Below are positions 1 through 60,940 of a stretch of 64,000 bases of DNA, in pieces. The notes under the pieces are model-generated. The model searched no databases and was not told where the DNA came from. It worked only from the letters and a program-made list of their open reading frames with translations. The stretch lies in contig NC_090380.1 in NCBI RefSeq assembly GCF_036365525.1, positions 109,577,942 through 109,641,941 on the forward strand. The letters run 5' to 3'. The stretch's first letter is position 1; each line of letters begins with the position of its first letter. A program made the position numbers and the translations under genes. Origin of the DNA: Heterodontus francisci. Lineage: Eukaryota.

Positions 1-1141
1 GCCCCTGCTGTTTTCAGTGCTCCGAATCTTCCATAAGCCGCCTTTTTTTTCCTGATCCAATCCTCTATATCCCTTGACATCCAGGGTTCCCTGGACCTGA
101 TGGTCCTACCCTTCACCTTAATGTGTACATGTTGGCTCTGAACCCTCACTATTTCCATTTGGAATGACTCCCATTGGCCTGATGTAGACTTTCCTACAAG
201 TAGCTGCTTCCAGTCCACTTTGGCCAGATCCTGTTTTATCAAATTGAAATCGGCCTTCCCCCAATTCAGTATCTTTATTTCTGGCCCGTCTTTGTACTTT
301 TCCAAAACTACCTTAAATCTTACAGAGTTATGGTCACAATCCCCGAAATGCAGCCCCACTGATACTTCTACCATTTGTCCATCTTCATTCACTAGGATTA
401 GGTCCAGTACTGCCCCTTCTCTTGTCGAACTTTCTACGTACTGGCTCAAAAAGCTCTCCTGTATGCATTTTAAGAATTCGTCCCCCTTTAAGCCTTTTGC
501 ACTAAGACTATTCCAGTTGATATTGGGGAAGTTGAAATCCCTTATTATTATTATTATCCTATTATTGTTACACCTCTCTGAGATTTGCCTACATATCTGT
601 TCCTCTATCTCTCCCTGACTGTTTGGAGGCCTATAGTACACACCCAGCCAAGTGATTGCCCCCCTTTTGTTTTTAAGTTCTACCCATATGGCCTCATTTG
701 AGGAACCTTCTAAGATATCATCCCTCCTCACTGCAGTAATTGACTCCTTGATCAACAGTGCAATACCACCTCCTCTTTTGTCCCCTCCCCCATCATGCCT
801 GAAGATTCTATATCCTGGAATATTGAGTTGCCAGTCCTGCCCCTCCCTCAGCCATGTCTCTGTGATGGCAATAATATCATAATCCCATGTGCTAATCAAT
901 GCCCTCAATTCATCTGCCTTATTAGTAAGACTCCTTGCATTAAGGTATATGCAATCCAGCCTTGCATTTTTCACTTGTGCCTTAACAGGTCTATATTTGC
1001 TCTGCCTTCCAGACTGACTCAGTTTCTCTTCTATATTTGGCTGTGCCCCACCCCTACTGTACCTCCACTCTGTATCCCACCCCCCTGCCAAATTAGTTTA
1101 AACACCCCGCAACAGCACTAGCAAACCTCCCAGCAAGGATA

Positions 1142-1513
1142 TTAGTCCCGTTCCAGTTCAGGTGTAACCCGTCCAACTTGTACAGGTCCCACCTTTGCCA
1201 GAAACAGGAACCTAAAGCCCTCCCTCCTGCACCATCTCCTCAGCCACGCATTCATCTGCTCTATCCTCCTATTCCTATACTCGCTAGCACATGGCACAGG
1301 GAGTAATTCAGAGATTACAACATTTGAGGTCCTGCTTTTTAATCTGCTACCTAGCTCCCTAAATTCTTGTTGCAGGACCTCATCCCTCTTTCCACCTGTG
1401 TCGTTGGTACCAACGTGTATCACAACTTCTGACTGTTCACCCTCCCCCTTCAGAATGTCCTGCAGCCGCTCCATGACATCCTTGACCCTAGCATCAGGGA
1501 GGCAACATACCAT
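1142..1513 (-). pseudogene. CR1 ORF1 SGNH esterase domain fragment
   Basis: VVIHVGTND and MNAWLRRWCRREGFRFL motifs; same as the ORF1 remnant at 19612..19839. Confidence 0.85.
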
Positions 1514-1670
1514 CCTGGAGTCTCATTTGCGGCCACAGAAACGCCTATGTGCACCCCTTATGATCTAATCCCCTCTCACTATAGCTCTTCCACCCCTTTT
1601 CCTCCCCTGCTGTGCAGCAGAGCCTTCCATGGTGCCATGAACTTGGCTGTTGCTGCTTTCCCCTGGAAGG

Positions 1671-2030
1671 TCATCCCCCCCCAACAGTATCTAAAGTGGT
1701 ATATCTGTTTGAGAGGGGCATGGCCACAGGGGACTCCTGCACTACCTGCTTGCGCCTACTACTCCGCCTGGTGGTCACCCATCCCTTTTCTGCCTGTGCA
1801 GCCATTACCTGCAGTGTGACCACCTCACTAAACGTGCTATCCACGATGTTATCAGCATCGAGGATGCTCCACAGTGAATCCACCTGCAGCTCCAGCTCCG
1901 TAATGCGGGTAGCCAGTAGCTGCAGATGGATACACTTCCTGCACACATGGTCGTCAGGGACACTGGATGCGTCCCTGATTTCCCACATAGTGCAGGAGGA
2001 GCATATCACGGGGCTGAGCTCTCCTGCCAT
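1671..2030 (-). pseudogene. CR1 ORF1 N-terminal zinc-finger/leucine-zipper region
   Basis: MAGELSPVICSSCTMWE...HVCRKCIHLQLLATRITELELQVDSL; frame broken before the esterase part. Confidence 0.85.
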
Positions 2031-2462
2031 GACTTACCCTTAGATTAATTCGTTACTTCCTTAATTAAAAAATGCTAATTACACTAGGTGCCTTGTTCTA
2101 CCCACTTGAATCTAAAGTCCTTAATAAGTTACACTGAATTTTAAAAAAACACTTTAGTAGTACTCACCTTATCACTAGAGGTTTTTTCCAACAAAAAAAC
2201 TTTCCCTTTATTTTTTAAGCTATTTAAATGCACTAACAGCTGCTACTCACCCAACCAATCACCTTGCAGATTTCCCATGATGTCACTGTAAGTTTTTTTT
2301 CGAGTCTCAGTGTGCACCGAGAGAGAGAGCAGGTCCACCAGCCGCCGCTGCTCCTGTCTTCAGGTAAGTGAGGGCCTTGAACCCCACGCTCTCTTTTACA
2401 GCTCCCGCTCCGGATCAGCTTCTGCCCAGGTCCGCCAACCGCCGCCGCTCCTGTCTTCAGGA

Positions 2463-15610: not shown

Positions 15611-15638
15611 AAAAATCGCCCTGTACATGTGAAACTGT

Positions 15639-16415
15639 TCTTCTTCTTCTTTGGCCTCCTTGTCTCGAGAGACAATGGGAAAGCGCCTAGAGGTGGTCAG
15701 TGGTTTGTGGAGCAGCTCCTGGAGTGGCTATAAAGGCCAATATTAGAGTGACAGACTCTTCCACAGGTGCTGCAGAAGAAATTGTTTGTCGGGGCTGTTA
15801 CACAGTTGGCTCTCTCCTTGCGCTTCTGTCTTTTTTCCTGCCAACTGCTAAGTCTCTTCGACTCGCCACACTTTAGCCCCGCCTTTATGGCTGCCCGCCA
15901 GCTCTGGCGATCGCTGGCAACTGACTCCCACGACTTGTGATCAATGTCACAGGACTTCATGTCGTGTTTGCAGACGTCTTTAAAGCGGAGACATGGACGG
16001 CCAGTGGGTCTGATAGCAGTGGCGAGCTCGCTGTACGATGTGTCTTTGGGGATCCTGCCATCTTCCATGCGGCTCACATGGCCAAGCCATCTCAAGCGCC
16101 ACTGACTCAGTAGTGTGTATAAGCTGGGGATGTTGGCCGACTCGAGGACTTCTGTGTTAGAGATACGGTCCTGCCACCTGATGCCAAGGATTCTCCGGAG
16201 GCAGCGAAGATGGAATGAATTGAGACATTGCTCTTAGTTGACATACGTTGTCCAGGCCTCGCTGCTGTAGAGCAAGGTACTGAGGACACAGGCTTGATAC
16301 ACTCGGACTTTTGTGTTCCGTGTCAGTGCGCCATTTTCCCACACTCTCGTGGCCAGTCTGGACATAGCAGTGGAAGCCTTTCCCATGCGTTTGCGCTTCC
16401 ACTGCTTCCACTGCT
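15639..16415 (-). mobile_element. RTE-clade LINE, 5'-truncated
   Basis: Near-identical to 25850-26590; C-terminal CSTCGRVC..H...C finger; (GAA)n tail; 12-bp TSD ATGTGAAACTGT at 15627-15638 and 16416-16427. Confidence 0.92.
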
Positions 16416-17214: not shown

Positions 17215-17618
17215 AAGCTATTTACATTTATATAGTGCCTTATGTGCTTCAGGAAATCCCAAAGCACTTTACAGCCAATGAAGCACTTTTAAAGGGTATT
17301 CACTGTTGAAATGTAGGAAACGCAGCAGTCAATTTGTGCACAGCAAGCTCCCACGAACAGCAACGTTATAATGACCAAATGATCGGTTTCAGTGAGGTTG
17401 GTTGAGGGCTGAATATTGGCCAGGATACCAGGGATAACTCCCCTGCTTTTCTTTGAAATAGTCCCTTGGGATCTGTTATGGCCACCTGAGAAATTAGATA
17501 GGGCCTTTGTTTAACAACTCATCTGAAAAACGGCACTTCAGACAGTGCAGCATCTCCTCAGTACTACACTGGACTGTCAGCCTAGATTTTTATGCTCAAG
17601 TTTCTGGAGTGGGGCTTG
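17215..17618 (-). mobile_element. Deu-domain SINE
   Basis: Reverse-complement match to the 10740 copy. Confidence 0.75.
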
Positions 17619-17887
17619 ATATTAATGAACAGAAAATTAGTTCAAACCCATCATGGTTATTTGAGAATTTGGATTTAGTTCTCAAAAAATAACCTGGAAA
17701 TAAAAATTGGTATCAGTAAAAAAAAAATGACCACACCACTATTGGATATTTATTCATTAACAGCTGTAAGATTATTAGGTTACTAAAAGTTACTAACCAG
17801 CATACTAATTGTTAAAATCCAGCTATTATAAGCTAACAACTAACTTGTTATCGTAAACTAACATTTAGCTTTATTAGAACATTTCTT

Positions 17888-18676
17888 TGTAGTAAGGTAA
17901 AGTGGAAACACTTAGGAAATAAGGCACAGTATGGACAAGATCTCAAGGCAGAGGGATTCTGGGAGATTATGTCAAGTTTTAAAAGGTTTACTTGTCGCAA
18001 AAGTGTGAGACCTTGAGAGCAGACAGTGAAAACAGCTTCTGCGTAGATTTGCATTGTAATGAGATAAGGAACCTCGAAATGTAAAAACATTGCAATAAAT
18101 AACCAACCCAAAGAGGTGCTACTTGCACAAATACGAAAGGTTAGCAACCATCAAAAAATGATCCTTGGTTGGTCTTGTATCCTTTAATACAAGACCAATC
18201 GCTGATTGGAAGAGGGGAGGGTTAACTGGAAAGCTGCCAGGATAAAAGGAGTCCTGTCCTTGCTACTGGACAGCAGAAAATTTTGAACAACAAGATGAGA
18301 GAGAGTGAGACCAACAAGGGAAACTTGAAGACCAAAAGCTGCAAAAGAAAGAGTCATGCCTTCTGTCATCCAGTCTCTAATACAGGTAGTATCTGTATTA
18401 GACTGTTAATTACTGCCTGAGTTTGTGACTATGGTTTAAATGAAAACTTAACAAACTTGTCCTTACCTTTATCTCAATAAAGTTGATTCAGAACAAGTTT
18501 TGTACAATCTGTCCAAGATGGCTCCTGGGCTGTAAGCTCCCTAGGAAGCTCCTTTGCTGTGCAACTCTATCCATGGCCGTCTGCTCCCATTCTTACTGCT
18601 TTCTCCCCCAATCTACCCTCTTAAACTGTTTAAATTCCCCTGGCTCTTTAATCAGTACATTTTAGCCCTAACTACA
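17888..18676 (+). mobile_element. Putative solo LTR
   Basis: Inverted termini TGTAGTAAGG...CCTAACTACA; TATA-like GATAAAAG at ~18241 and AATAAA at ~18476; TSD not conserved. Confidence 0.35.
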
Positions 18677-18700
18677 AGTTAACAGCTAGTTTAATGTTAC

Positions 18701-18894
18701 CTGTGCCCACTGCCCTCTCCCAGCCATAACTGCTCTTTGCTTTCTTCATTCAGCACTGAATTTTGCTCAAACTGACATCTAAATTTCTGGACACCTAGGC
18801 TGCACTTCTCTACTGGACAAAATTGCAAAGTACAGCTGGTGATACTCTGATCTTCTGTCCTGTTGTCTACATCGTCCAGTGTGTCCGCGGCCAT
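18701..18894 (-). CDS. Candidate first coding exon of an unidentified gene (MAADTLDDVDNRTEDQ...GEGSGH)
   Basis: Strong Kozak cacgccATGG, 64 open codons, donor CAG|GTAACA at 18701/18700, CpG-rich pyrimidine-rich leader; no recognisable homology. Confidence 0.35.
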
Positions 18895-18982
18895 GGCGTG
18901 CGGTAAGTCCAGTGCAGAGAGGAAGGAGCAGCGGAACCCGAGGGTAATAAGACCTAGTACAGAGGGGAAGCATTGAGAAAAA

Positions 18983-19180
18983 GGTGCCCCCGAACTCCTA
19001 AAAAGCCACGGCCCGGCGCCAGTTGACTCCATCGCGGAACGGCTCCTCGGCCACAACTTCAAAGCGCCTGCAGGAGATGTGAGGCTCGTAGCGCTTCTGC
19101 AGCGCAATGTCGGCGAATTTCTGCTGGTACTGGCTCCCGAGGCTGACGCCCACCTCCCGGAGGACGTGGATGAGCTTTCC
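18983..19180 (-). pseudogene. BCL2: Bcl-2 family (BCL2-like) BH3-BH1 fragment, disabled
   Basis: KLIHVLREVGVSLGSQYQQKFADIALQ...RRFEVVAEEPFRDGVNWRRAVAF*EFGGT aligns to BCL2 LRxAGD..Y...FA.....[21 protein letters not shown]. In-frame TAG at 18998-19000, NWGR to NWRR, no BH4, BH2 or TM visible. Confidence 0.85.
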
Positions 19181-19220
19181 CGGCATCGATGGTGGGAACT
19201 GATGAAATGCTTTATTACCT

Positions 19221-19478
19221 GCACCCCCTTTCCAACCCCTCCCCCACTTCCCCTTCCCAGCTCCCCCATCCCAGCTCACCCCCCGCACCCTCTTCCCCCA
19301 CCCCCTCCCCCCCTCGCAACCCCTTTCCAGCTCCCCCCTCGCACCATCTTCCCCTGCACCCCCTTCCCCTGCACACCTCCCCACCCCCTGCAGCCCCCTT
19401 CCCAGCTCCCCCTCACACCCCCTTCCCTCCTCCCCTCCCCCTCGCACCCCCTCCTCCCAACTGCATCCACCTATCCCT
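19221..19478. repeat. C-rich/G-rich degenerate minisatellite (cccttcccagctccccc units)
   Basis: Unit recurs at ~19251, 19321, 19396; many C3-C7 runs. Confidence 0.85.
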
Positions 19479-19544
19479 AAGCAGGGCCCCTAACAACCCC
19501 ACTGCTTTGTGGGCATCTCGGGAGAGTCCAAAGCTAAGGGAGTA

Positions 19545-22500
19545 AACTCTTAAAAGTTAAGGGTTAAAAAGTAAGTTAAAAAGTAAGACCTCAGAGGTAG
19601 TAATCTCAGGATTGCTACCAGTGCCACGTGATAGTCACAGTAGAAATGAAAGAATAGTCAGGATGAATGCGTGGCTTGAGAGATGGTGCAGGAGGGAGGG
19701 GTTCAGATCTTTGGGACATTGGGACCGGGTCTGGGGGAGGTGGGACTATTACAAATTGGACAGTCTACACCTGGGCCAGACTGGAACCAATGTCCTTGGG
19801 GGTGCTTTTGCTAACGCTGTTGGGGAGGGTTTAAACTAATGTGGCAGGGGGATGGGAACCAAATGAGGTCAGTGGACAGTAAGGAGGTAGTAACTAAAGC
19901 CTGTAAGGAACTAGATAATGTAGTCAGCGTGACTAAGGGAAAGAGTAGGCAGGGAGCAGATGATGAACGCAAAGGGACTGGTGGTCTGAGGTGCATTTGT
20001 TTTAATGCAAGAGGTCTAGTAGGTAAGGCAGATGAACTTAGGGCTTGGATCAGTACCTGGGAGTATGATGTTATTGCTATTACTGAGACTTGGTTAAGGG
20101 AAGGGCATGATTGGCAACTAAATATCCCAGGATACCGATGCTTCAGGCGGGATAGAGAGGGAGGTAAAAGGGGTGGAGGAGTTGCATTACTGGTCAAAGA
20201 GGATATCACAGCTGTGCTGAAGGAAGGCACTATGGAGGACTCGAGCTGTGCGGCAATATGCGCAGAACTCAGAAATAGGAAGGGTGCGGTAACAATGTTG
20301 GGGCTGTACTACAGGCCTCCCAACAGCGAGCGTGAGATAGAGGTACAAATATGTAAACAGATTATGGAAAGATGTAGGAGCAACAGGTTGGTAGTGATAG
20401 GAGATTTTAATTTTCCCAACATTGACTGGGATTCACTTCGTGTTAAAGGTCTAGATGGAGCAGAATTTGTAAGGAGCATCCAGGAGGGTTTTCGAGAGCA
20501 GTATGTAAATAGTCCAACTCGGGAAGGGGCCATACTGGACCTGGTGTTGGGGAATGAGCCCGGCCAGGTGGTTGAAGTTTCAGTAGGGGACTACTTTGGG
20601 AATAGTGATCACAATTCCGTAAGTTTTAGAATACTCATGGATAAAGACGAGAGTGGTCCTAAAGGAAGAGTGCTAAATTGAGGGAAGGCCAACTATACCA
20701 AAATTCGGCAGGAGCTGGGGAATGTAGATTGGGAGCAGCTGTTTGAAGGTAAATCCACATTTGATATGTGGGAGGCTTTTAAAGAGAGGTTGATTAGCGT
20801 GCAGGAGAGACATGTTCCTGTGAAAATGAGGGGTAGAAATGGAAAGATTAGGGAACCATGGATGACAGGTGAAATTGTGAGACCAGCTAAGAGGAAAAAG
20901 GAAGCATACATAAGGTCGAGGTAGCTGAAGAAAGACGAAGCTTTGAAAGAATATTGGGATTGTAGGCGCAATCTGAAACGAGGAATTAAGAGGGCTAAAA
21001 GGGGTCATGAAATATCTTTAGCAAACAGGGTTAAGGGAAATCCCAAAGCCTTTTATTCATATATAAGGAGCAAGAGGGTAACGAGAGAAAGGATTGGCCC
21101 ACTCAAGGACAAAGGAGGAAAGTTATGCGTGAAGTCAGAGAAAATGCGTGAGATTCTAAACGAGTACTTTGCATCGGTATTCACCGAGGAGAGGGACATG
21201 ACGGATGTTGAGGTTAGGGACAGATGTTTGATTACTCTCGGTCAAGTCGGCATAAGGAGGGAGGAAGTGTTGGGTATTCTAAAAGGCATTAAGGTGGACA
21301 AGTCCCCAGGTCCGGATGGGATCTATCCCAGGTTTCTGAGGGAAGCGAGAGAGGAAATAGCTGGGGCCTTAACAGATATCTTTGCAACATCCTTAAACAC
21401 GGGTGAGGTCCCGGAGGACTGGAGAATTGCTAATGTTATCCCCTTGTTTAAGAAGGATAGCAGGGATAATCCAGGTAATTATATACCGGTGAGCCTGACG
21501 TCAGTGGTAGGGAAGCTGCTGGAGAAGATACTGAGGGATAGGATCTATTCCCATTTGGAAGAAAATGGGCTTATCAGTGATAGGCAACATGGTTTTGTGC
21601 AGGGAAGGTCATGTCTTACCAACTTACTAGAATTCTATGAGGAAGTGACAAAGCTGATTGATGAGGGAAGGGCTGTAGATGTCATATACATGGACGTCAG
21701 TAAGGCGTTTGATAAGGTTCCCCATGGTAGGCTGATGGAGAAAGTGAAGGCGCATGAGGTCCAAGGTGCACTAGCTAGATGGATAAAGAACTGGCTGGGC
21801 AACAGGAGACAGAGAGTAGCAGTGGAAGGGAGTTTCTCAAAATGGAGACGTGTGACCAGTGGTGTTCCACAGGGATCCGTGCTGGGACCACTGTTGTTTG
21901 TGATATACATAAATGATTTGGAGGAAAGTATAGGTGGTCTGATTAGCAAGTTTGCAGACGATACTAAGATTGGTGGAGTAGCAGAGTGAAGGGGACTGTC
22001 AGAGAATACAGCAGAATATAGATAGACTGGAGAGTTGGGCAGAGAAATGGCAGATGGAGTTCAATCAGGGCAAATGCGAGGTGATGCATTTTGGAAGATC
22101 CAATTCAAGAGTGAACTATACAGTAAATGGAAAAGTCCTGGGGAAAATTGATGTTCAGAGAGATTTGGGTGTTCAGGTCCATTGTTCCCTGAAGGTGGCA
22201 ATGCAGGTCAATAGAGTGGTCAAGAAGGCATACGGCATGCTTTCCTTCATGGGACTGGGTATTGAGTACAAGAGTTGGCAGGTCATGTTACAGTTGTATA
22301 GGACTTTGGTTCGGCCACATTTGGAATACTGCGTGCAGTTCTGGTCGCCACATTACCAAAAGGATGTGGATGCTTTGGAGAGGGTGCAGAGGAGGTTCAC
22401 CAGGATGTTGCCTGGTATGGAGGGCGCTAGCTATGAAGAGAGGTTGAGTAGATTAGGATTATTTTCATTAGAAAGACGGAGGTTGAGGGGGGACCTGATT

Positions 22501-22879
22501 GAGGTGTACAAAATCATGAGAGGTATAGACAGGTTGGATAGCAAGAAGCTTTTTCCCAGAGTGGGGGATTCAATTACTAGGGGACACGAGTTCAAAGTGA
22601 AAGGGGAAAAGTTTAGGGGGGATATGCGTGGAAACTTCTTTACGCAGAGGATGGTGGGTGCCTGGAACACGTTGCCAGCGGAGGTGGTAGACGCGGGCAC
22701 GATAGCGTCTTTTAAGATGTATCTCGACAGTTACATGAATGGGCAGGAAGTAAAGAGATACAGACCCTTAGAAAATAAGCGACAGGTTTAGAGAGAGGAT
22801 CTGGATCGGCGCAGGCTTGGAGGGCCGAAGGGCCTGTTCCTGTGCTGTAATTTTCTTTGTTCTTTGTTCTCTTTGTTCT
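19545..22879 (+). mobile_element. CR1 LINE, truncated in ORF1, with complete but disrupted ORF2
   Basis: ORF1 end 19612..19839; ORF2 pieces 19839..20681 (APE), 20943..21989 (RT), 22054..22791; (TTTGTTC)n tail. Confidence 0.95.
19839..22791 (+). pseudogene. CR1 ORF2 (APE endonuclease + reverse transcriptase)
   Basis: IAITETW, GDFN, SDH; QHGF, KAFDKVPH, GVPQGSVLGP, FADD; stops at ~20679 and ~20922, frameshift near 21985. Confidence 0.93.
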
Positions 22880-22884
22880 AACAG

Positions 22885-25800
22885 AAAATCCGGAGCGGAA
22901 CCCCGTAGGCGGTCATGTGTCACCTTTGGCATGTTTCCGGCAGTTCCTGCAGCCATACCGGTGCCAAACGTCGTGCTCTGCACTCCTTTGGACCCCACCA
23001 GAAAGGCCGAGAGGGGGGTTTTGATGCTTGGGCAACTCACAACCTCCATACATTCGCCCAGGCATGCGCCATGGAGATGTCACTCCATAGTCGCCTCACA
23101 GCGACCGAAACAACACGGAAGGCAGCAGTTACGGCTTATAAGTCCAGCTCAATTGGCGTAGAGATTGGACGTCACGGGTTGCCTTTGTCGGTGGGAGAGG
23201 TCATCGCACCTCACTGGACAGCTACCGCCCGCCTCAAACCGGGCAGCCCCCGGTCAATAAGGTTCTGTCCCGCCACAGTCCACCTGCTTCAATGGGTGCT
23301 TGGAGCTCAGGGTCATTGCCCGAAAAGCAGACTGCAACACCGCACCAAACAGCACGAAAAAAGGAAAGAAGGTACCAGCCCTTCGATTTCCAAGCTGGAA
23401 CGTCAGAATTATGTGTCCTGGCCTGTCGGAAGACCTTACACAAATCAACGATTCTCGGAAGACCACCATCATTAACAACGAGCTCAGTAGACTCAATGTG
23501 GACATTGCAGCATTTCAGGAGACACGCCTCCCTGCGAGCGGATCTCTAATGGAGCAAGACTACACCTTCTTCTGACAGAGTAGGGATCCTGAAGAACCAA
23601 GACAGCATGGAGTGGGCTTTTCCATCAGAAACTCTTTGCTCAGCATGATAGAGCCACCTTCAAATGGCTCAGAACGCATACTGTCCATCCGACTGCTCAC
23701 CGCCTCTGGTCCAGTACACCTACTCAGCATCTATGCTCCAACACTCTGCTCCCCACATGAAGATAAAGACCAGTTCTACGAGGAACTCCATAATATCATT
23801 AGTAGCATCCCCAATACCAATCATCTGTTCCTGCTGGGGGACTTTAATGCCAGGGTTGGGGCCGACCATGACTCATGGCCCTCCTGCCTTGGGCGCTATG
23901 GCGTTGGAAGGATGAATGAGAATGGACAGAGACTGGTTGAGTTGTGTACCTATCATAACCTCTGCATCACCAAATCGTTTTTTCACACTAAACCCTGTCA
24001 CCAGGTTTCTTGAAGGCACCCAAGATCACGTCGTTGGCACCAGCTGGACCTCATCGTCACAAGGCGAGCCTCCTTAAACAGTGTTCAAATCACACACAGC
24101 TTCCACAGTGCAGACTGCGACACCGACCACTCGCTGGTGTGCAGCAAGGTTAGACTCAAACCAAAGAAGCTGCATCACTCCAAGCAGAAGGGCCACCCTC
24201 GCATCAACACGAGCAGAATTTCTTATCCACAGCTGTTACAAAAATTTCTAAATTCACTTGAAAAAGCCCTTCAAAAACCTCCGACGCGGGATGCAGAGAC
24301 CAAGTAGGCCCACATCAGAGACGCCATCTATGAGTCAGCTATGACCACCAATGGCAAACATGTGAAGCGGAATGCAGACTAGTTTCAATCTCACTTTGAA
24401 GAGCTAGAACCTGTCATAGCCGCTAAGCGCATTGCACTGCTGAACTACAAGAAAGCCCCCAGCGAGTTAACATCCGTAGTACTTAAAACAGCCAGAAGCG
24501 CTGCACAAAGAACAGCCAGGCGCTGCGCAAATAACTACTGGCAACACCTATGCAGTCATATTCAGCTGGCCTCTGACACCGGAAACATCAGAGGAATGTA
24601 TGATGGCATTAAGAGAGCTTTTGGGCCAACCATCAAGAAGATCGCCCCCCTCAAATCTAAAGCAGGGGACATAATCACTGACCAACACAAGCAAATGGAC
24701 CGCTGGGTGGAGCACTACCTAGAACTGTACTCCAGGGATAATGTTGTCACTGAGACCGCCCTCAATGCAGCCCAGTCTCTGCCAGTCATGGATGAGCTGG
24801 ACGTACAGCCAACAAAATCGGAACTCAGTGATGCCATTGATTCTCCAGCCAGCGGAAAAGGCCCTGGGAAGGACGGCATTACCCCTGAAATCATCAAGAG
24901 TGCTAAGCCTGCTATACTCTCAGCACTCTACGAACTGCTTTACCTGTGCTGGGACCAGGGAGCAGTACCACAGGACATGCGTGATGCCAATATCATCACC
25001 CTCTATAAGAACAAGGGTGACCGCGGTGACTGCAACAACTACCATGGAATCTCCCTGCTCAGCATAGTGGGGAAAGTCTTCGCTCAAGTCGCTTTAAACA
25101 GGCTCCAGAAGCTGGCCGAGCGTGTCTACCCTGAGGTACAGTGTGGCTTTCGAGCAGAGAGATCGACCATTGACATGTTGTTCTCCCTTCGTCAGCTACA
25201 GGAGAAATGCCGTGAACAACAGATGCCCCTCTACATTGCTTTCATTGATCTCACCAAAGCCTTTGACCTCGTTAGCAGACGTGGTCTCTTCAGACTACTG
25301 GAAAAGATCGGATGTCCACCAAAGCTACTAAGTATCATCACCTCATTCCATGACAATATGAAAGGCACAATTCAGCATAGCAGTGCCTCATCAGACCCCT
25401 TTCCTATCCTGAGTAGCGTGAAACAGGGCTGTGTTCTCGCACCCACACTGTTAGGGATTTTCTTCTCCCAGCAGCTCTCACATGCGTTCAAGTCTTCAGA
25501 AGAAGGAATTTTCCTCCACGCAAGATCAGGTGGCAGGTTGTTCAACCTTGCCCATCTAAGAGTGAAGACCAAAGTATGGAAAGTCCTCATCAGGGAACTT
25601 CTCTTTGCTGACGATGCTGCATTAACATCTCACACTGAAGAGTGTTTACGGAAACTCATCGACAGGTTTGCGGCTGCCTGCAACGAATTTGGCTGAACCA
25701 TCAGCCTCAAGAAAACGAACATCATGGGACAGGACGTCAGAAATGCTCCATCCATCAATATTGGCGACCACGCTCTGGAAGTGGTTCAAGAGTTCACCTA

Positions 25801-26591
25801 CCTAGGCTCAACTATCACCAGTAACCTGTCTCTCGATGCAGAAATCAACAAGCGCATGGGAAAGGCTTCCACTGCTATGTCCAGTCTGGCCAAGAGAGTG
25901 TGTGAAAATGGCGCACTGACACGGAACACAAAAGTCCGAGTGTATCAAACCTGTGTCCTCAGTACCTTGCTCTACGGCAGCGTGACCTGGACAACGTATG
26001 TCAGCCAAGAGCGACGTCTCAATTCATTCCATCTTCGCTGCCTCCTTGGCATCAGGTGGCAGGACCATATCTCCAACACAGAAGTCCTCGAGACAGCCAA
26101 CATCCCCAGCTTATACACCCTACTGAGTCAGCGGCGCTTGAGATGGCTTGGCCATGTGAGCCGCATGGAAGATGGCAGGATCCCCAAGGACACATTGTAC
26201 AGCGAGCTCGCCACTGCTATCAGACCCACCGGCCGTCCATGTCTCCGCTTTAAAGACGTCTGCAAATGCGACATGATGTCCTGTGATCACAAGTCGTGGG
26301 AGTCAGTTGCCAGCGATTGCTAGAGCTGGCGGGCAGCCATAAAGGCGGGGCTAAAGTGTGGCGAGTCGAAGAGACTTAGCAGTTGGCAGGAAAAAAGACA
26401 GAAGCGCAAGGGGAGAGCCAACTGTGTAACAGCCCTGACAACCAATTTTATCTGCAGCACCTGTGGAAGAGTCTGTCACTCTAGTATTGGCCTTTTTTGC
26501 CACTCCAGGCGCTGCTTCACAAACTACTGACCACCTCCAGGCGCTTACCCATTGTCTTCCGAGACAAGGAGGCCAAAGAAGAAAAAGAAGA
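22885..26591 (+). mobile_element. RTE-clade (BovB-like) LINE, apparently full length
   Basis: GC-rich 5'UTR, single APE-RT reading frame, (GAA)n tail; TAACAG flanks both ends (22879-22884 and 26592-26597). Confidence 0.93.
23300..26530 (+). pseudogene. RTE ORF (APE + RT + C-terminal zinc finger), nonsense-disrupted
   Basis: ORF pieces 23300, 23612, 24596 and 25724 are in the same frame; SWNVR, LLGDFNARVG, FIDLTKAFD, VKQGCVLAP, LLFADD. Confidence 0.93.
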
Positions 26592-26639
26592 TAACAGGTT
26601 TTGTGCTGCCAAGTTTGTTCTCACTTTGGAAGGGTATAT

Positions 26640-26868
26640 AAAACACCCCTATCTTATCAAATCTTACACAGACTTTAGGGGAGGTACCTGCCATCCTTAT
26701 CCAGTCTGGCCTGCATGTGACTCCAGTCCTATACCAATGCAGTAGACTCTTAACTGCCTTTTGAATCAAACCACCAGAAGTTAACCCACCACAACCTCTT
26801 CAGGATAACTGGGGATGGGTAATAAACACTGGCTTTTCCAGCAATGCCCACATCCTGAGAAAAAAACA
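26640..26868 (+). mobile_element. Non-autonomous head+tail derivative of the tRNA-headed LINE
   Basis: gactccag...ctcttaactgcc (leader) joined to gggatgggtaataaa...gcccacatcc + A-tail. Confidence 0.6.
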
Positions 26869-50135: not shown

Positions 50136-52005
50136 AGTAAAGCATGGAAAATTTCACAAAGAGATGGTTCTAGTGGCCCAGGAATGCGGCAGAGAAAGGT
50201 GGGTAGACCCCAGCGAAGCAGATCATTCACCCAGCCTCCAACTGTGAGGCGATAGGGGATTCCCCACCCCAAGCAGCAGCTCACACCTCCTCCACTCTCT
50301 GGTGCAGCCATTCTCCATTACCAGTATTGCTGTCGGAGTGGAAATGGGAGCAGTGATTAAAGTCATGTTGGAAAGGCCTATGGGTCAAAGGTAATGCTAC
50401 AACACTGTCATATTGATTGGCCTTGACCTCTCTTATCTCTCACTCCCTTCTCTCTCCAGAAATGAATCTAATTTGTACTTTTATCATTAGTTGAAATCTG
50501 TTCTTCAAGACGGGGCTATTCAGCAATGCTGACCCTTATTACTTCGGAGCATGATTTTGTCAGCTTTATTCCTCATACAGAATAAATCCTCCTTCCCTGC
50601 CGGGGCAAGAAGTGGCAGACCTGGAAATGGGACTTGGGAGCAAGCAGGCATTGTTGGGGATTTTTCAGAAAACATAGCTTCTTGCTTTACAAATTGGTAC
50701 TTTCTAATTTAAAGACAATTAACGGCATAGGTCAGACAATAAAGATGAAGAAGTAATAGAAATAACATGGATGTGACCAATAATCCGAGCCAACTGTCAA
50801 TTAGGGCACAAAAATGCAGATCTGACCTGAAGCTGTCAAGTGTAGGAGTCCACTGTTAAGTGAAACAAATGGGAGTCAGACATACCACATAAGAGATTGT
50901 CCTTACTCAACAAACTAATTACAAGAACATCATTAGATATTAATCAATAATCAATTAAGAACACTTCAAACCAGCGTGCTGCAGCTGTGTCTGTCTACTA
51001 ATGTGGTTCATTGACTCCCAAGTACATGTTTGGGAGCTGTAATTGGTATGTGCTCGACATCTGTTTGCCTGATTGACAACCAGTGCAGTGACCAATTAAA
51101 GAGACACTGTCTTCATGCAAAGAAGTGCCTGGCGACCTAGAAGTTCTTCAGATGACAGACGTCAGGGCTGGAAAATAAAACACCTTCCATTTCAGAGCTA
51201 ACCCATGTTAGGGTCAAGCCTTCTCAGATCAGGCGTACGTAGGGTAAGACTTAGGCCAGCCTTCCTGTTGCTTTTCAGATGGAGATTGCTGAGATCGGTG
51301 TTAAATAAGGGCCAGTTTTATGCAATGGGTCTTGCAATGAATTGACTGATCGTCCAGGCTAAAATTGCTAAAATTCTCCTGTATTAACCCAAATTATACA
51401 GGCTTGTAATGTAAAGAGAAATGTTAAACCTTCCTTGTCATTGCTCATTGTGAAAGGTGAAGATAAATTCTCTCTTGCTCCCACTCCCACTCTTTTTGTT
51501 TGGAGATGGAGGCAGTAATAGAGGGATGGGTGTTCATCTACTACAGAAAGGCATGTGTTACATGGGAATTATGGCTCGGAATGTTGACATTGTGGGTCTT
51601 GAAATATAATACACTACAGTTTCTTAGGATTTAGGTGGTAATCATAGGAACTAATGCTGAAGGCAGAAGGGAGAGATGGTTGAGAGATCTTATTGTTCTG
51701 GTGATATTGAGGGACAAAATGTAATGTATTCCTATGTTATGAGCATGCCCCATGTCTGATTACATCATAAAACATGTGATCTGGCCAACTTGGTGTTTGT
51801 CTTTCTCACAAGTTCCTCCCATAACAGATTTTGACAACGAAATGGAATGAAAGTGCAAAATGATTTGTAGCAAATGGCAGTAAAAAAGCGAACTCCCAGT
51901 GACCTACCCACTAGGACGAAGATTTTCAACTAGATTGTGTTGAGCCTCATTGTTTCTGAAAATGTGTGGCAACACTCAGTTGAATTGAATCTGCAGTGTT
52001 CTAGT

Positions 52006-52485
52006 TAAAAGCCTGCTACCCGATCCGAACCCAACAGGACCCGACGACATGTGTTGGGTTCGAATCGGGTTGGGTCCCTCTTCCGGGTCCGGCTTTCGGG
52101 CTCGGGTCGGGCCGGGTCCGGGTCGGACACAAACAGTAAGTATTGCAATTTGCTCTGCTGGTAAGTGTCAGAAGTTGAAATGCCTACCTGAGCTGGGAGT
52201 CTGGGACGTCAAGGAGGGAAACTCTGAGTCTGCGCAGTGAGCGAGTGAGCATCCCTGTGATGTCATCGCATTCATGCTGCAGCTTCCTGCAGATTGGGAG
52301 TCGGAAGGTAGAGTCGGAAGGTAAAATGAACATTCTGGTGGTCGGGTCGGGCACGGGTCGGGTCGGCCTCGGGTCGGGTCGGGTGCAGGAAAAAATAGAG
52401 GGACTCGGGCCGGGCTTGATTCAGGTCCATTGTGGGTCTGTCGGGTTTGGGTCGGGTTTTTTTCCCTGACCTGCACAGGCCTTTA
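52006..52485. mobile_element. hAT-type non-autonomous element
   Basis: TIRs TAAAAGCCTG / CAGGCCTTTA; 8-bp TSD GTTCTAGT (51998-52005) / GTTCTAAT (52486-52493); subterminal TCGGG/CCCGA arrays. Confidence 0.8.
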
Positions 52486-52519: not shown

Positions 52520-55500
52520 ACTGGCTTTATCCCAGTCATGTGGATATTCATGACAGTATGTTCTAATCATCGCTTTGAGAGTCTGGTGAAATCTCTCTCA
52601 AGCTCCCTGTGATTGTGGGCGATATGCTGAAGATTTCAACTGTCTAATCCCCAAATTGCCCATGACTTCTTGAAATGTCCTAGATATGAAATTAGAGCCT
52701 TAATCTGATTGAACGTCTAGTGGCAACCCATAGCTCGTAAAGAATTGGATTAACGTTTTGACTACTACTCTAGCAGTAATTGTCCTCAAAGGAATGGCCT
52801 CTGGAAATGGAGTAGCCATATCCATGATAGTAAGTATGTATTGTTGCCCTGCTTTTGTTTTGAGCATGGATCCTACACAATCTACGAATACCCTGCTAAA
52901 TGGTTCCTTAATCACTGGTATGGGAACTTGTGGTGCTGGCTTTATGGTAGGTTGTGGTTTTCCCACCACTTGACAGGTATGGCTTGTCCTATAAAATTGT
53001 CTCACATCCTTTGTAAGACCTGGCCAGTAATAATGTTGGCTTTTGCATGATTTGGTCTTCCAAATCCCCCTATGTCCTGCAAAAGGAATTTTGTGTGCTA
53101 ACCTTAATAATCCTTGGCGATATTTAGCTGGTACCACTATCTGTTCAACAACTGTTCAGTCTTCATGGGCAGGCCTATGAGGCGGTCTCCATTTCCTCCT
53201 CAAAACCCTGATGGCCATATAATAGCCTTCCAGAACTCCTTTCACCTCAGCTCCTGACAGAGCCATCTGTGCTATTTGGTATATCTCTGGATCAGCTTGC
53301 TTAGCTGCAATGATGGATGATCTGTTAAACGTCTCATTTGGATTATCTAAATCCCCAAATATGGTTTCAGATACTTGACTATCTATTTGTTGTACCCCCT
53401 TTACCTCTGACAATGGATCCTGTTCAGCCATTGCTTGGGCAACAACACACCACAGGAAATATTCCTGGAACTTGTTCCTGTAATTGCTCAGTTTCCTTAA
53501 TTTCACTTGGTTCCTCTGTAATTATAGGAGAAACTGATACTTTTGATCCAGCCAAATCATTTCCTGAGAGTAGATCAATTCCCTTTACTGACAAACTGTG
53601 GACAACTCCTACAGTTACTATCCCAGATATTAAGTCACTCATTAGGCATGCTTTATACAAAGGTACGGGTATATACTCCCCGCCAATTCCATTAACTAAA
53701 ACTTTAGCATTCAAGGCACTCTCTAGTGGAAACCTCATATCTTTACCCAGCAAGAATGTTTGGGTTGCTGCTGTGTCCCTGAGTATAATGATAGGTTTTC
53801 CTGCCTCACTTACAGGATATGGAGTTACTCTCCCCTTTGACATCATTATAACTCTCAGGTATTTTGTTCTTAACCCCTACACTCACTCTAGTTTTAGTAT
53901 CTGGTTTTACAGCTGTTGTTAAAGCTATAGCCTCGTCTGCTATACACTCAATGAGAGTCCTTTCTTCTGCACTAGCCTTGTGTACCCCAACAAGTCCTAT
54001 GCCTTTTTGACCTGAGGAGGTAATCCTGGGTCATTCTCGGTTGTTTCTTCCTGTCCCCGGCTACTTGCCTTCCTTTCAATCTCCAACTTTCCTTCTCGGC
54101 TTTATGGGGGTGACGGACAAAAGAGGTTAGCTTATTCACAAGCTCAAAATCACAGCAATTTCTGCTGCTTACCGAGCTTTCAGAGCTTTCAGGTTATCTA
54201 TATGAGTTCTCACTACCGAAGGAATGGCGTTTTTAAACTCTTCTAAGATAATCAATTCTCATATCTCTATCTCTATCTCTAACGCCCATATCCAACGGTC
54301 AAAAGTAATTTGCTTTGCCCTCTCAAATTCTAAATATGTCCACCCAGCCAATTTTCATAAGTTCCTAAACTTCAGGGACTAACTCATACGCAGCGAGAAT
54401 AGCCTTTTTTGCCATTTCATAATCTACACAAGCTTCTTCGGGAAGTATGGCATAAACTTCATGAGCTCTGCCTACCAACCTGCCCTGCATAAGCAGTGTC
54501 CAGCTTTCTTTCAGCCATTTCATCTATTTGCCTATTTTATCAATAGATATGAAAAATACCTATATGTCCCTTTCCTCGAACCTAGGAAGAGCCTGTATAA
54601 ATTTAAACAACTTTTTGCTGGGTCCTGAGCTAAATTCAGATTCTTCCTGACCTGAATTTTCCCTGGATTCAAGACTATCCTTTAGTTTTAGTTCCATCTC
54701 TTTTAACTTAAATTCCCTCTCTTTCTCCCTTTCCTCTTTCTGGAATTCAAGCTTAAGTCTTTTCAATGCTATTGCTGTTTCTTTATCTTGTTCAAGTTTT
54801 CTTATTGTTTCTTCTTTTTCTTTTTCCCTTTCCTCTTTTTCCAATTCAAGTTTTCTTAATTCCTTTTCAGCCTCAAGTTTTTTCATTTCGAACTAAATCC
54901 TAGCCAATACCACTGCATCACTCTCTGGCCTACTACTTTCTTGTTCCTCATATTCTCCTTCATCAAATTCTTCTTCTTCTAATTCCAGACGTTGGGCTAT
55001 TATGTCAATTATCTCTGCTTTTTTGGCACCTAATTTCAATTCCAACCCCAATTTCACTGCCAATTCTTTTAACTTGTTCTTAGTTAAAGTTATCAAGTCA
55101 CTTAGGGAAATATTCTGCTTTCCCCAAAACTCTGCTGCAATCACTAATGCCATTACAATGGTATAGACTGTACCTTATTTTACAAGAGACCTGGTTCTTT
55201 TTATTTCTTTGTAATTGGCATTAGATTTAGATCCCAACAATAGAGTTTCCAATTTCCCCCAATTTAAATGTGTTATCCCAGAAACGAGTAATTAATATGA
55301 TTCTAAATGCCGACCTTTCAAATTAGTCTGATTCTGATCCCAGACGCGAGCTGCTTAATTAAAATATGATTCAATTGCGCGCGAGCCTCCAATTAATATG
55401 TTACAACACGACTGCTCAAGACAACGCCCCCAATCATAATATATGATTCTGATTGTGGTAGGAGCAATGCACTGTCAATTCAGTCCCGTCACTCCATAGA

Positions 55501-59078: not shown

Positions 59079-60940
59079 GGGCTGAATCTTACATTGGGCG
59101 GGAGACTCCGCCCACCGGCCGAAAAGCCAGGGTTTAGCCTGCCTCCACCAGCCTTGGGGAGCCACGCCAGGATTGTTCCCTCCCCTGGCCCTTAATTGGC
59201 CTTGTGGGGAGGGGATTCCCACCTTCTTGAGGCAGGAAGTCCTGCCGAATAAAGCTGCTGGCCAATCAATGGGCAGACAGCTCTTAGTCCCAGCATCGCA
59301 ACCGGGAGCAGTGACCAGTGCTGGGACTGCACCCAGCCCACAGAAGCAAGAAGCACGACAGCCCCGGAACTAAGGTAAGTTTCTGGGGCCTCACCAGGGA
59401 CAATTGGCCGGGCCCCAGCAAAGCAAGGCAGGGTCAGTCAGAGTGGGTGTGTTGTGCAGTGGGGACAGTTGGGCCATGGAGGAGGGGGTGGCCCTCCATG
59501 GGGCATAGGGAACCTGATCATGAGGTCCCCCCCCCACTAGCCCGCAAGAAGGCTGCCAAAGTGGACCATGTCCAGAGGGACACGATGTTCAAACTTCTGG
59601 ATAAAGGGGGAAAAAACGTACCCAACATTGCCCTCATCCTGATGGTCACCTTTGTGTGCGGCTGCATCAAGCTGTGCGTACAGCCCCAGTACGCAAACAC
59701 CAAGTGTCACTATGTGCTGAGGTTCTATCTGTCCCCGGTGTTGCGAAGGATGGGTTTGGCCACATTGCCGTGGAACGCTCCATCAAGTTGGACTGTGCCG
59801 TACCACCTATCCTTCCTGGAAAAGTTTCTGCAGAAAAACACCTTTGACCACCAATCTATCAGGCAGTGGTCTGCACGGAATGTCCTCAAGGCCCTACAGG
59901 AAAAAGAGATGGTGGATCCTGTCAGATGGTTCCCTGAGCAGACTTCCAAAGTGATTTGGCAGAATGCCTCATCACCAGAACTTTCAAACAAGCACCAAGG
60001 TGTAGCTTGGCTGGTGGTGAGAAGGGCCCTCTCTGTCAGATGCTTCCTGCACGCTGGGAATCTCACCGTCTCTGCACGCTGCCCTCGAGGTGGCTGTGGT
60101 GGGGGAGAGACCATTGCCCACCTCCTTCTGGATGTGCCTTTGCAAAGCTAGTCTGGAAAGAGATGCAGTGGTTTTTGTCGAGGTTCATCCCAAGTAGCTC
60201 TGTAACTCAGGAGTCTGTGCTCCACAGTCTGTTCCCAGGGACGTATATCTAAATAAATATCAACTGCTGCTGGAGGACCATCAACTCAATGAAAGATGCT
60301 CCTTGACCTGCCCAAAACTTGCTGGTCTTCTAATGCAAAGAATTGTCCACGACCAAGTGTTGCAGACTGGCACATTCCAAGGTCCAGGATCATGTGCTGA
60401 GGGACGCACTAATGCTTGGGGCAGACGCCGCAAAGGCTCAATGGGGAAAGGCCACTGTGTCAGGTCCTCCCGCTATAGTGAACCGAGGGGCTGGAACCTG
60501 TGTAAAATCCCTCAGGCTGTATGCACCAAAATATGGTTTTGCTGTAATGCAAATCTACATTGCAGGTAAAATGGAATGGAAGGGTTGTGAGGCAACTCAC
60601 GTTCTGTATTGAAGAAAACTAATTTCTTTTGCAATCTCTGGAATGTCAACTTGGAACTGTTTTGTAATGTATTTTTTTTTTACAGATTTTTATGAATAAA
60701 GTATGTTTTTGGGAAAAAAAAGCAAAAAGGCTGCCAGGTGGTTAATTGACCACTTAAGGACCTTGATTAGCCTGGGACAGATGGGCCATTTCTCTCCACT
60801 GCCATCCCATATAAAATTGCAGCAGGGGTGGGAAGGTGTCAGGAATGGTAGCCCCTCCCACCCCCAACTGCCTCCCACTCAATTTTATGGCTCCCCACCA
60901 TCTCCAGCCCGCTCATGTGGGGAGCCATAAAATTCCAGCC
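59079..60940 (+). mobile_element. GC-rich MITE-like element hosting a Tx1 insertion
   Basis: Termini GGCTGAATCTTA / TAAAATTCCAGCC; shared core. Confidence 0.65.
59559..60726 (+). mobile_element. L1/Tx1-clade LINE 3' fragment
   Basis: KGG..VPN, CPRGGCGGGETIAHLLL zinc-knuckle region, AATAAA + A-tail; TSD AAGGCTGCCA at 59549-59558 and 60727-60736. Confidence 0.82.

Follow-up and report, generated by a model that had tools for sequence, protein, structure and literature searches.

A disabled segment of BCL2 coding sequence was identified on the minus strand of a 64,000-nucleotide stretch of DNA (the window), inside a nest of mobile elements. Judged by its sequence, this segment is disabled BCL2 exon sequence rather than Bcl-xL, and together with its flanks it is, with near certainty, a many-copy repeat in three organisms. 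We think it probable, if well short of certain, that the piece was captured once, in antisense orientation, into the 5′ leader of an RTE-type LINE and was spread as a non-coding passenger.

Identity of the BCL2 segment

The segment and its immediate surroundings comprise the following features.

18983..19178, minus strand: BCL2-derived segment (end of the loop, BH3, and BH1), corresponding to skate residues 57-121
Within 18983..19178, minus strand: damage, consisting of a one-base frameshift at about 19169-19166, NWGR changed to NWRR, and an in-frame TAG at 19000-18998
19218..19480, plus strand: C-rich low-complexity tract (G-rich on the minus strand), the source of the long open frame described in an earlier note on this DNA

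The minus-strand peptide reads MPGKLIHVLREVG...FRDGVNWRRAVAF*EFGGT, with an ATG at 19186. The earlier note had described the in-frame TAG and an end of homology after EFGGT, and both are seen in the sequence, homology to BCL2 stopping after GGT at 18983. From VLREVG to GGT (18983-19165, minus strand), 43 of 61 residues are identical to skate BCL2. A phmmer search against PDB matched the fragment to BCL2 (E = 1.2e-12), and among 1.84 billion representative proteins the BCL2 of the skate Rhinoraja longicauda was the best match by far (E = 9.9e-15), with 26 proteins of that collection giving E values below 0.001. The Pfam Bcl-2 profile matched at E = 1.2e-5 over profile positions 1-54 of 100, its 26.2 bits lying below the gathering score of 31.4 bits. 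These matches bear out the origin in the Bcl-2 family that had been proposed. Word-index protein searches with the fragment returned no match, a weak null since the skate protein sits in the same collection.

The earlier assignment to BCL2 and not Bcl-xL also holds, with 70% identity to skate BCL2 vs 47% to sawshark Bcl-xL, but the reason given for it, the EFGG motif, does not, because skate BCL2 has VFGG. In a tree of 15 rows, 14 of them chosen from 50 proteins, the fragment was sister to skate BCL2 at 99/99, on an end branch of 0.51 vs 0.014 for skate BCL2; such a long branch flags the placement as uncertain. The fragment shares with elasmobranch BCL2 (R. longicauda, XP_078276420.1 / XP_078276411.1) the VGD-type BH3 context, FADIALQ, and FRDGVNW. 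It differs from skate BCL2 in spanning residues 57-121 only, in its frameshift, stop, and NWRR, and in being without BH4, BH2, and the membrane anchor. Unlike skate BCL2, it is also many-copy and sits within a retroelement.

Within the window, the BCL2 piece occupies a single locus, and a tblastn search with 50 proteins found no BH4, BH2, anchor, or other Bcl-2 part elsewhere in these 64 kb. The skate BCL2 isoforms split only beyond NGDW, so the piece was likely cut mid-exon on both sides, within one exon, and with such cuts the RNA and DNA routes of capture look alike. Distant Bcl-2 homologs were also encountered on two viral contigs (L069:2993-3442 and L070:5001-5423; 36% and 26% identical to skate BCL2, respectively) and are, as far as seen, unrelated to the piece.

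Copies in sequencing runs and decay of the reading frame

Four of 14 sequencing runs (X1, X5, X6, and X7), spanning organisms A, B, and C, were aligned to 17700-19250 at 80% likeness. X1, a DNA run of organism A, yielded 4,808 contigs on this stretch, which fell over its whole length into identity classes of 497 (99% and above), 1075 (95-99%), 1889 (90-95%), and 1347 (under 90%). Summed word depth in X1 was 6.9 in the bin 17700-17751 and 457 to 89,845 in all others, with 2,100 to 67,000 over the BCL2 piece (five bins, 18948-19207); summed depth is not a copy number and is read here only as many copies. Coverage of the piece extends to organisms B and C, whose runs have 188 and 73 contigs on the whole of 17700-19250. 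Many diverged copies with different flanks were found, as in an interspersed repeat. The 3′ junction of the piece at 18983 is spanned by X5 record 15, X6 records 22 and 23, and X7 record 31; since it is bridged in three runs, the fusion is a family trait and not the one-off joining to unrelated DNA that had been supposed. The earlier descriptions of the fragment as an orphan and as a single partial duplicate or retrocopy thus give way to that of a segment of an amplified retroelement, many-copy in three organisms.

The parent's reading frame is broken. Skate KAH was found at 19178-19170 in the adjacent frame, shifted by one base from VLREVG, and four bases stand where one codon is expected just upstream of VLREVG, which constitutes a frameshift. 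The residues LIH, the ATG at 19186, and the open frame as far as 19447 are therefore accidental. That frame, previously reported as open from 19447, is mechanically open (on the minus strand from 19489), but it is not the frame of the parent. In BH1, the window copy has lost the NWGR glycine (NWRR), as the earlier note had seen, and carries L102P and the TAG.

Some of the differences belong to this copy alone. Skate BCL2 reads LREVGD in BH3 and FFVFGGT in BH1. The Asp-codon base at position 19146 (BH3) was present in 3,769 of 3,784 X1 depth units, the Val-codon base at 18996 in 257 of 288, and both in all of X5, X6, and X7; a base other than that of the window copy was seen in 50 X1 contigs at 19146 and in 11 at 18996. 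The VGV of BH3 and the EFGG are private mutations of the window copy, and most copies have VGD and VFGG. Of the BH3 damage formerly given as AGD to VGV, the D to V is a real lesion, whereas the A to V is native, as skate BCL2 has VGD. Four X5 contigs are without 19010-19036, which encodes nine BH1 core codons, and show TGG at the stop codon (a by-eye reading of the loose end at 19037). One X1 contig is without 18983-19036, and one X7 contig omits 19080-19150 (71 bases). Variant places totaled 552; position 18999 is not among the 40 of these that were listed.

In a simulation, the 18 changed residues agreed with about 10% unselected base change, which is an upper estimate, some of the 18 being shark-skate differences, and is protein-based, taken against skate BCL2 and not the species' own BCL2. 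The piece likely codes for no protein, and its reading frame decays freely. A functional Bcl-2 protein was considered and rejected: the BH1 NWGR needed for anti-apoptotic function is not intact (NWRR, L102P, TAG), and BH4, BH2, and a membrane anchor do not occur together in one frame. A truncated product, which had been thought conceivable, is unlikely because of the frameshift, the stop, and the lack of BH4, BH2, or anchor. A classical processed pseudogene was likewise rejected, as the piece has no poly(A) or target-site duplication of its own at its ends; the target-site duplication that was found encloses a whole 8.1-kb insertion and not the BCL2 piece alone.

The piece lies, as the earlier note had it, in a CpG-rich patch of a CpG-poor window. 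There are 20 CpG in 18983-19190, with an observed/expected ratio of 0.97 vs 0.30 window-wide, and this is the most CpG-dense 208-base stretch in the window (the runner-up has 16 CpG). GC3 of the BCL2 piece is 0.84, and two RTE copies in the window differ at 16% of CpG sites vs 4.5% of other sites. With such a GC3 and a modest age, most inherited CpGs would survive, so the unmethylated or regulatory state that had been read into them is not needed. The adjoining 18861-18982 is also CpG-rich (7 in 122 bases) and may be a second captured piece.

Nested elements and the carrier of the segment

The piece lies in an 8.1-kb insertion (18504-26592) that interrupts an LTR-like element. From left to right, the nest contains the following.

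17765..18503: left part of the LTR-like element, the insertion target, with a sharp end at 17765 in 77 X1 contigs that have unrelated flanks
18492..18503, plus strand: target-site duplication, left copy, 12 bases, 11 of 12 identical to 26593-26604
18504..19575, plus strand: first kilobase of the insertion, carrying the BCL2 piece antisense; many-copy in X1, X5, X6, and X7 over 18504-19250
18514..18522, plus strand: CAAGATGGC motif, 10 bases within the 5′ end of the insertion, its sole occurrence on either strand in the window
18903..18908, plus strand: consensus splice donor GCG/GTAAGT, found by sequence; one X5 contig departs behind 18903, a weak sign of use
19576..22879, plus strand: presumed CR1-type LINE, beginning inside ORF1, with endonuclease, reverse transcriptase (RT), and a (TTTGTTC)n-like tail
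22880..26592, plus strand: body of a likely RTE-type LINE, with a CpG-rich leader of about 380 bases, one long frame, and a (GAA)n-like tail
26593..26604, plus strand: target-site duplication, right copy, 12 bases, directly 3′ of the RTE tail
26605..26668: right part of the LTR-like element; 46 X1 contigs run from 18503 into matching sequence

The two halves of the LTR-like element fixed both duplication sites independently. Beyond 18503, the sequence of the 46 X1 contigs matches 26605-26634 at 26 of 30 bases (the next best match in the window has 19), and the start at 17765 and 26660-26668 form perfect 9-base inverted ends, TG...CA. The element measures 803 bases in all, and three of four flanking bases are repeated. 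In trials with a fixed 12-mer, a random match equal to that of the duplication arose in a 60-base target 4 times per about 20,000.

The BCL2 piece occupies the opposite strand, at 480-675 bases from the 5′ end of the insertion. One X5 contig and one X7 contig enter the insertion at 18513 and 18514, coming from unrelated sequence. We take CAAGATGGC to be a YY1-type motif, a label carried over from the human L1 promoter. The X5 contig that leaves at 18903 continues with 255 foreign letters and could be a chimeric first exon. Depth inside the first kilobase is very uneven, from about 90,000 at 18532-18583 to 15-330 at single places in 18772-18814, so this part may be modular. Depth at 18514-18687 (plus strand), the first 170 bases of the insertion, is far above that of the part behind and reaches about 90,000; this may reflect a non-autonomous derivative of shorter length or a promoter module that is shared.

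The RTE-type frame has 1,023 codons with six stops and no frameshift, and it encodes endonuclease and RT. Pfam Exo_endo_phos_2 and RVT_1 were matched in a single frame, 23261-26330, with no ORF1. The Atlas matches of its RT are unnamed or DUF6451. Frame layout, tail, and duplication together point to 22880..26592 as a likely RTE-type LINE, and the microsatellite 3′ tail and a duplication within 7-15 bases that starts with A were found as in the RTE clade. Target-site duplications peak at 10-12 bases in the RTE clade and at 3-5 bases in CR1 and L2 (extracts of PMC4245944 and PMC6007223); those of RTE elements range over 7-15 bases and in animals often begin with A (extract of PMC6007223). The 12-base duplication in the window begins with A. 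A second RTE-type copy at 15638-16393 (minus strand) is 5′-truncated, is 92.5% identical over 756 bases, and has its own target-site duplication of 12-15 bases with a similar start; its 5′ junction has some 35 additional bases that include a short inverted repeat. A 609-base contig in a bacterial metagenome-assembled genome (L068:4-606) codes for an RT that shares 68% identity with the RTE-type frame, without flanks, and is likely animal DNA in a bacterial assembly.

The CR1 label of 19576..22879 is our assumption from the ORF1 esterase and the tail type. A 12-base unit is repeated at the 5′ junction of this element (19563-19587), and no clear duplication was found at its own ends.

In the window copy, the piece thus sits in an insertion with a 12-base duplication and an RTE 3′ end. 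Under the capture reading that we favor, an RTE-type LINE of an ancestral cartilaginous fish would have taken up about 195 bases of BCL2 coding exon in reverse, by template switch or recombination, which leave indistinguishable outcomes. Copies made by target-primed reverse transcription would have spread the piece before organisms A, B, and C separated, or else the piece would have moved between them. The window copy would have inserted into the LTR-like element and been hit later by CR1, and the CpG-rich piece would only sit in, or add CpGs to, the internal promoter region of the element. The first kilobase and the RTE body probably form one transcript in the family, judging from a single copy with CR1 between them, and CR1 likely arrived after the insertion. 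The window copy itself is a dead insertion, with six stops in the RTE frame and CR1 in the leader.

Two other readings of sequence in the first kilobase were rejected. A primer-binding site at 18519 onward, considered by eye, would have made this the leader of an LTR element, for which no 12-base duplication is expected, and the window has no second LTR. A 65-codon minus-strand frame from the ATG at 18894 (18700-18894) has a good Kozak context and a GT donor at its end. It was rejected as a gene, since searches of Pfam, PDB, the word index, and Atlas gave it no support and the window copy alone carries its ATG, where 4,394 of 4,882 X1 depth units have GTG. No Rfam match was found in 17600-23400. 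A degenerate 21-mer hit 67 metagenome loci, and 0 of the 67 were related by blastn or tblastn; a leader 21-mer had no match in prokaryote genomes and viral contigs.

Other elements were seen elsewhere in the window. The stretch 52700-54900 (minus strand) has zinc-binding and core matches to integrase and is the decayed interior of an LTR retrotransposon; next to it, (GGTCG)n occurs in CpG-rich sequence at 51950-52480. Broken frames occupy 59315-60569 (plus strand), where two frames were scanned without a Pfam match; the broken frames look like the C-terminal part of an L1/Tx1-type RT.

Rival readings and related captures

The leader is linked to the RTE body in one copy only, with CR1 in between, and two readings of the junctions fit. 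The second, which we regard as rather unlikely, makes the BCL2 kilobase the 5′ part of a CR1 subfamily minus most of ORF1, or else a separate non-autonomous element, and has the RTE come later into the right-hand duplication. The kilobase directly adjoins CR1, and TAACAG is present at both the CR1/RTE junction (22879) and the RTE 3′ end (26592), so the RTE could be a separate, later insertion with a short duplication; 22880-26592 (3.7 kb) alone is a plausible full length. Secondary losses of ORF1 are known in CR1 lineages (extract of PMC13343379), and the CR1 tail supplies a T-stretch such as RTEs favor upstream of the cut (extract of PMC6007223). However, a duplication of 12 bases is atypical for CR1 (3-5 bases; extract of PMC4245944), one of 5-6 bases is short for an RTE (7-15 bases; extract of PMC6007223), and the target starts AGAAC, like the RTE tail and the target of the second RTE copy and unlike the CR1 tail. 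The unit repeated at the CR1 5′ junction is also what would be expected of a truncated insertion end, and the other CR1 of the window (182-2300) has a leader unlike the BCL2 kilobase. The earlier note saw the piece as a lone copy of a BCL2 exon, made by duplication or as a retrocopy, and as perhaps regulatory or encoding a truncated protein, which is very unlikely. Its one locus in the 64-kb window and its CpG richness would suit that view, but many diverged copies with a common junction occur in three organisms, the piece has no poly(A) or duplication of its own, its ATG is out of the parent's frame, and the ATG at 18894 is mostly GTG in X1. A genuine BCL2 paralog with a sequencing error at the TAG would explain the high similarity to BCL2 over 61 codons and is hardly credible given the mid-exon ends on both sides, the absence of BH4, BH2, and anchor elsewhere in the window, the frameshift, NWRR, and L to P in BH1, and the location in a mobile-element nest.

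Host sequence is multiplied by mobile elements elsewhere. In human SVA_F1, a MAST2 exon is fused to the 5′ end of SVA, and Pack-type DNA transposons take up and multiply host sequence. SVA_F1 acquired its exon, a 5′ one, in sense and through splicing, whereas here an internal coding stretch is antisense, with mid-exon cuts on both sides. In anatomy alone, the piece can be likened to the gene-capture telomeric LINEs of Drosophila (TART-A/nxf2 and the aub and piwi captures; extract of PMC13534243), in which a host coding fragment of 140-235 bases is amplified in a non-LTR retrotransposon; the BCL2 fragment, at about 195 bases, lies in a non-coding part, outside any element frame. Unlike those LINEs, the present element has a vertebrate host, is RTE-type and not Jockey-clade, is dispersed and not telomeric, and carries an apoptosis regulator. 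With RTE-clade LINEs (BovB and RTE-1 types; extracts of PMC6007223 and PMC4245944) it has in common the single endonuclease-RT frame, the microsatellite tail, and the 12-base duplication starting with A, and, provided that leader and body are truly linked, it differs from them in having some 1.4 kb of 5′ leader that includes a piece of a host exon. Our literature search found no paper that describes a repeat with BCL2 sequence in cartilaginous fishes; Repbase, Dfam, and supplementary repeat libraries lay outside that search and may already contain the family. The string "bcl" does not occur in the main text of the Squalomix preprint, of PMC13343379, or of PMC3597677, and in the Greenland shark preprint "bcl2" occurs only as bcl2fastq. 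Capture of a host gene that reaches a non-LTR consensus is rarely reported, with too few cases to test (extract of PMC3597677).

An antisense effect on BCL2 is possible. The piece might be retained as antisense RNA, its transcripts or derived piRNAs/siRNAs pairing with BCL2 mRNA and lowering it, which would tie the activity of the element to cell death or force the host to relax silencing; we rate this reading as improbable. Its size and UTR position match those of the Drosophila captures (140-235 bases; extract of PMC13534243), its orientation is antisense to the insertion strand, and it is kept in three organisms. The exit of the X5 contig at the plus-strand donor 18903 is a weak hint of read-out antisense to BCL2, the status of X5, like that of X7, as RNA being a guess. 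Retention is, however, equally expected from hitch-hiking, and copies carry deletions within the piece. In Drosophila, piRNAs target the host gene when identity is about 90% and no longer do so at 79-82%, and the window copy, about 10% or more from functional BCL2, is near that failure level; eight of nine Drosophila captures are of silencing genes, which BCL2 is not (extract of PMC13534243). The wider conjecture that a shark-lineage LINE acts as a BCL2-antisense tripwire or hostage at hundreds or thousands of loci, coupling element activity to apoptosis via small RNAs, seems to us just as improbable. If true, it would be the first case in a vertebrate to parallel the gene-capture conflict of Drosophila, with a death regulator and not a silencing gene as its target.

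The best-studied captures are in flies, and the BCL2 case is a family-wide capture, in a vertebrate, of a well-known gene, likely neutral, with its carrier unsettled. If the piece is merely a passenger, its interest lies mainly in repeat curation. Copies can inflate BCL2 hit counts and copy-number calls and can affect primers and RNA-seq mapping in animals that are studied for longevity and cancer resistance. As a marker of capture in a vertebrate, the BCL2 piece is dated and many-copy, and with it one can test directly whether fragments of this kind act on the gene that they came from.
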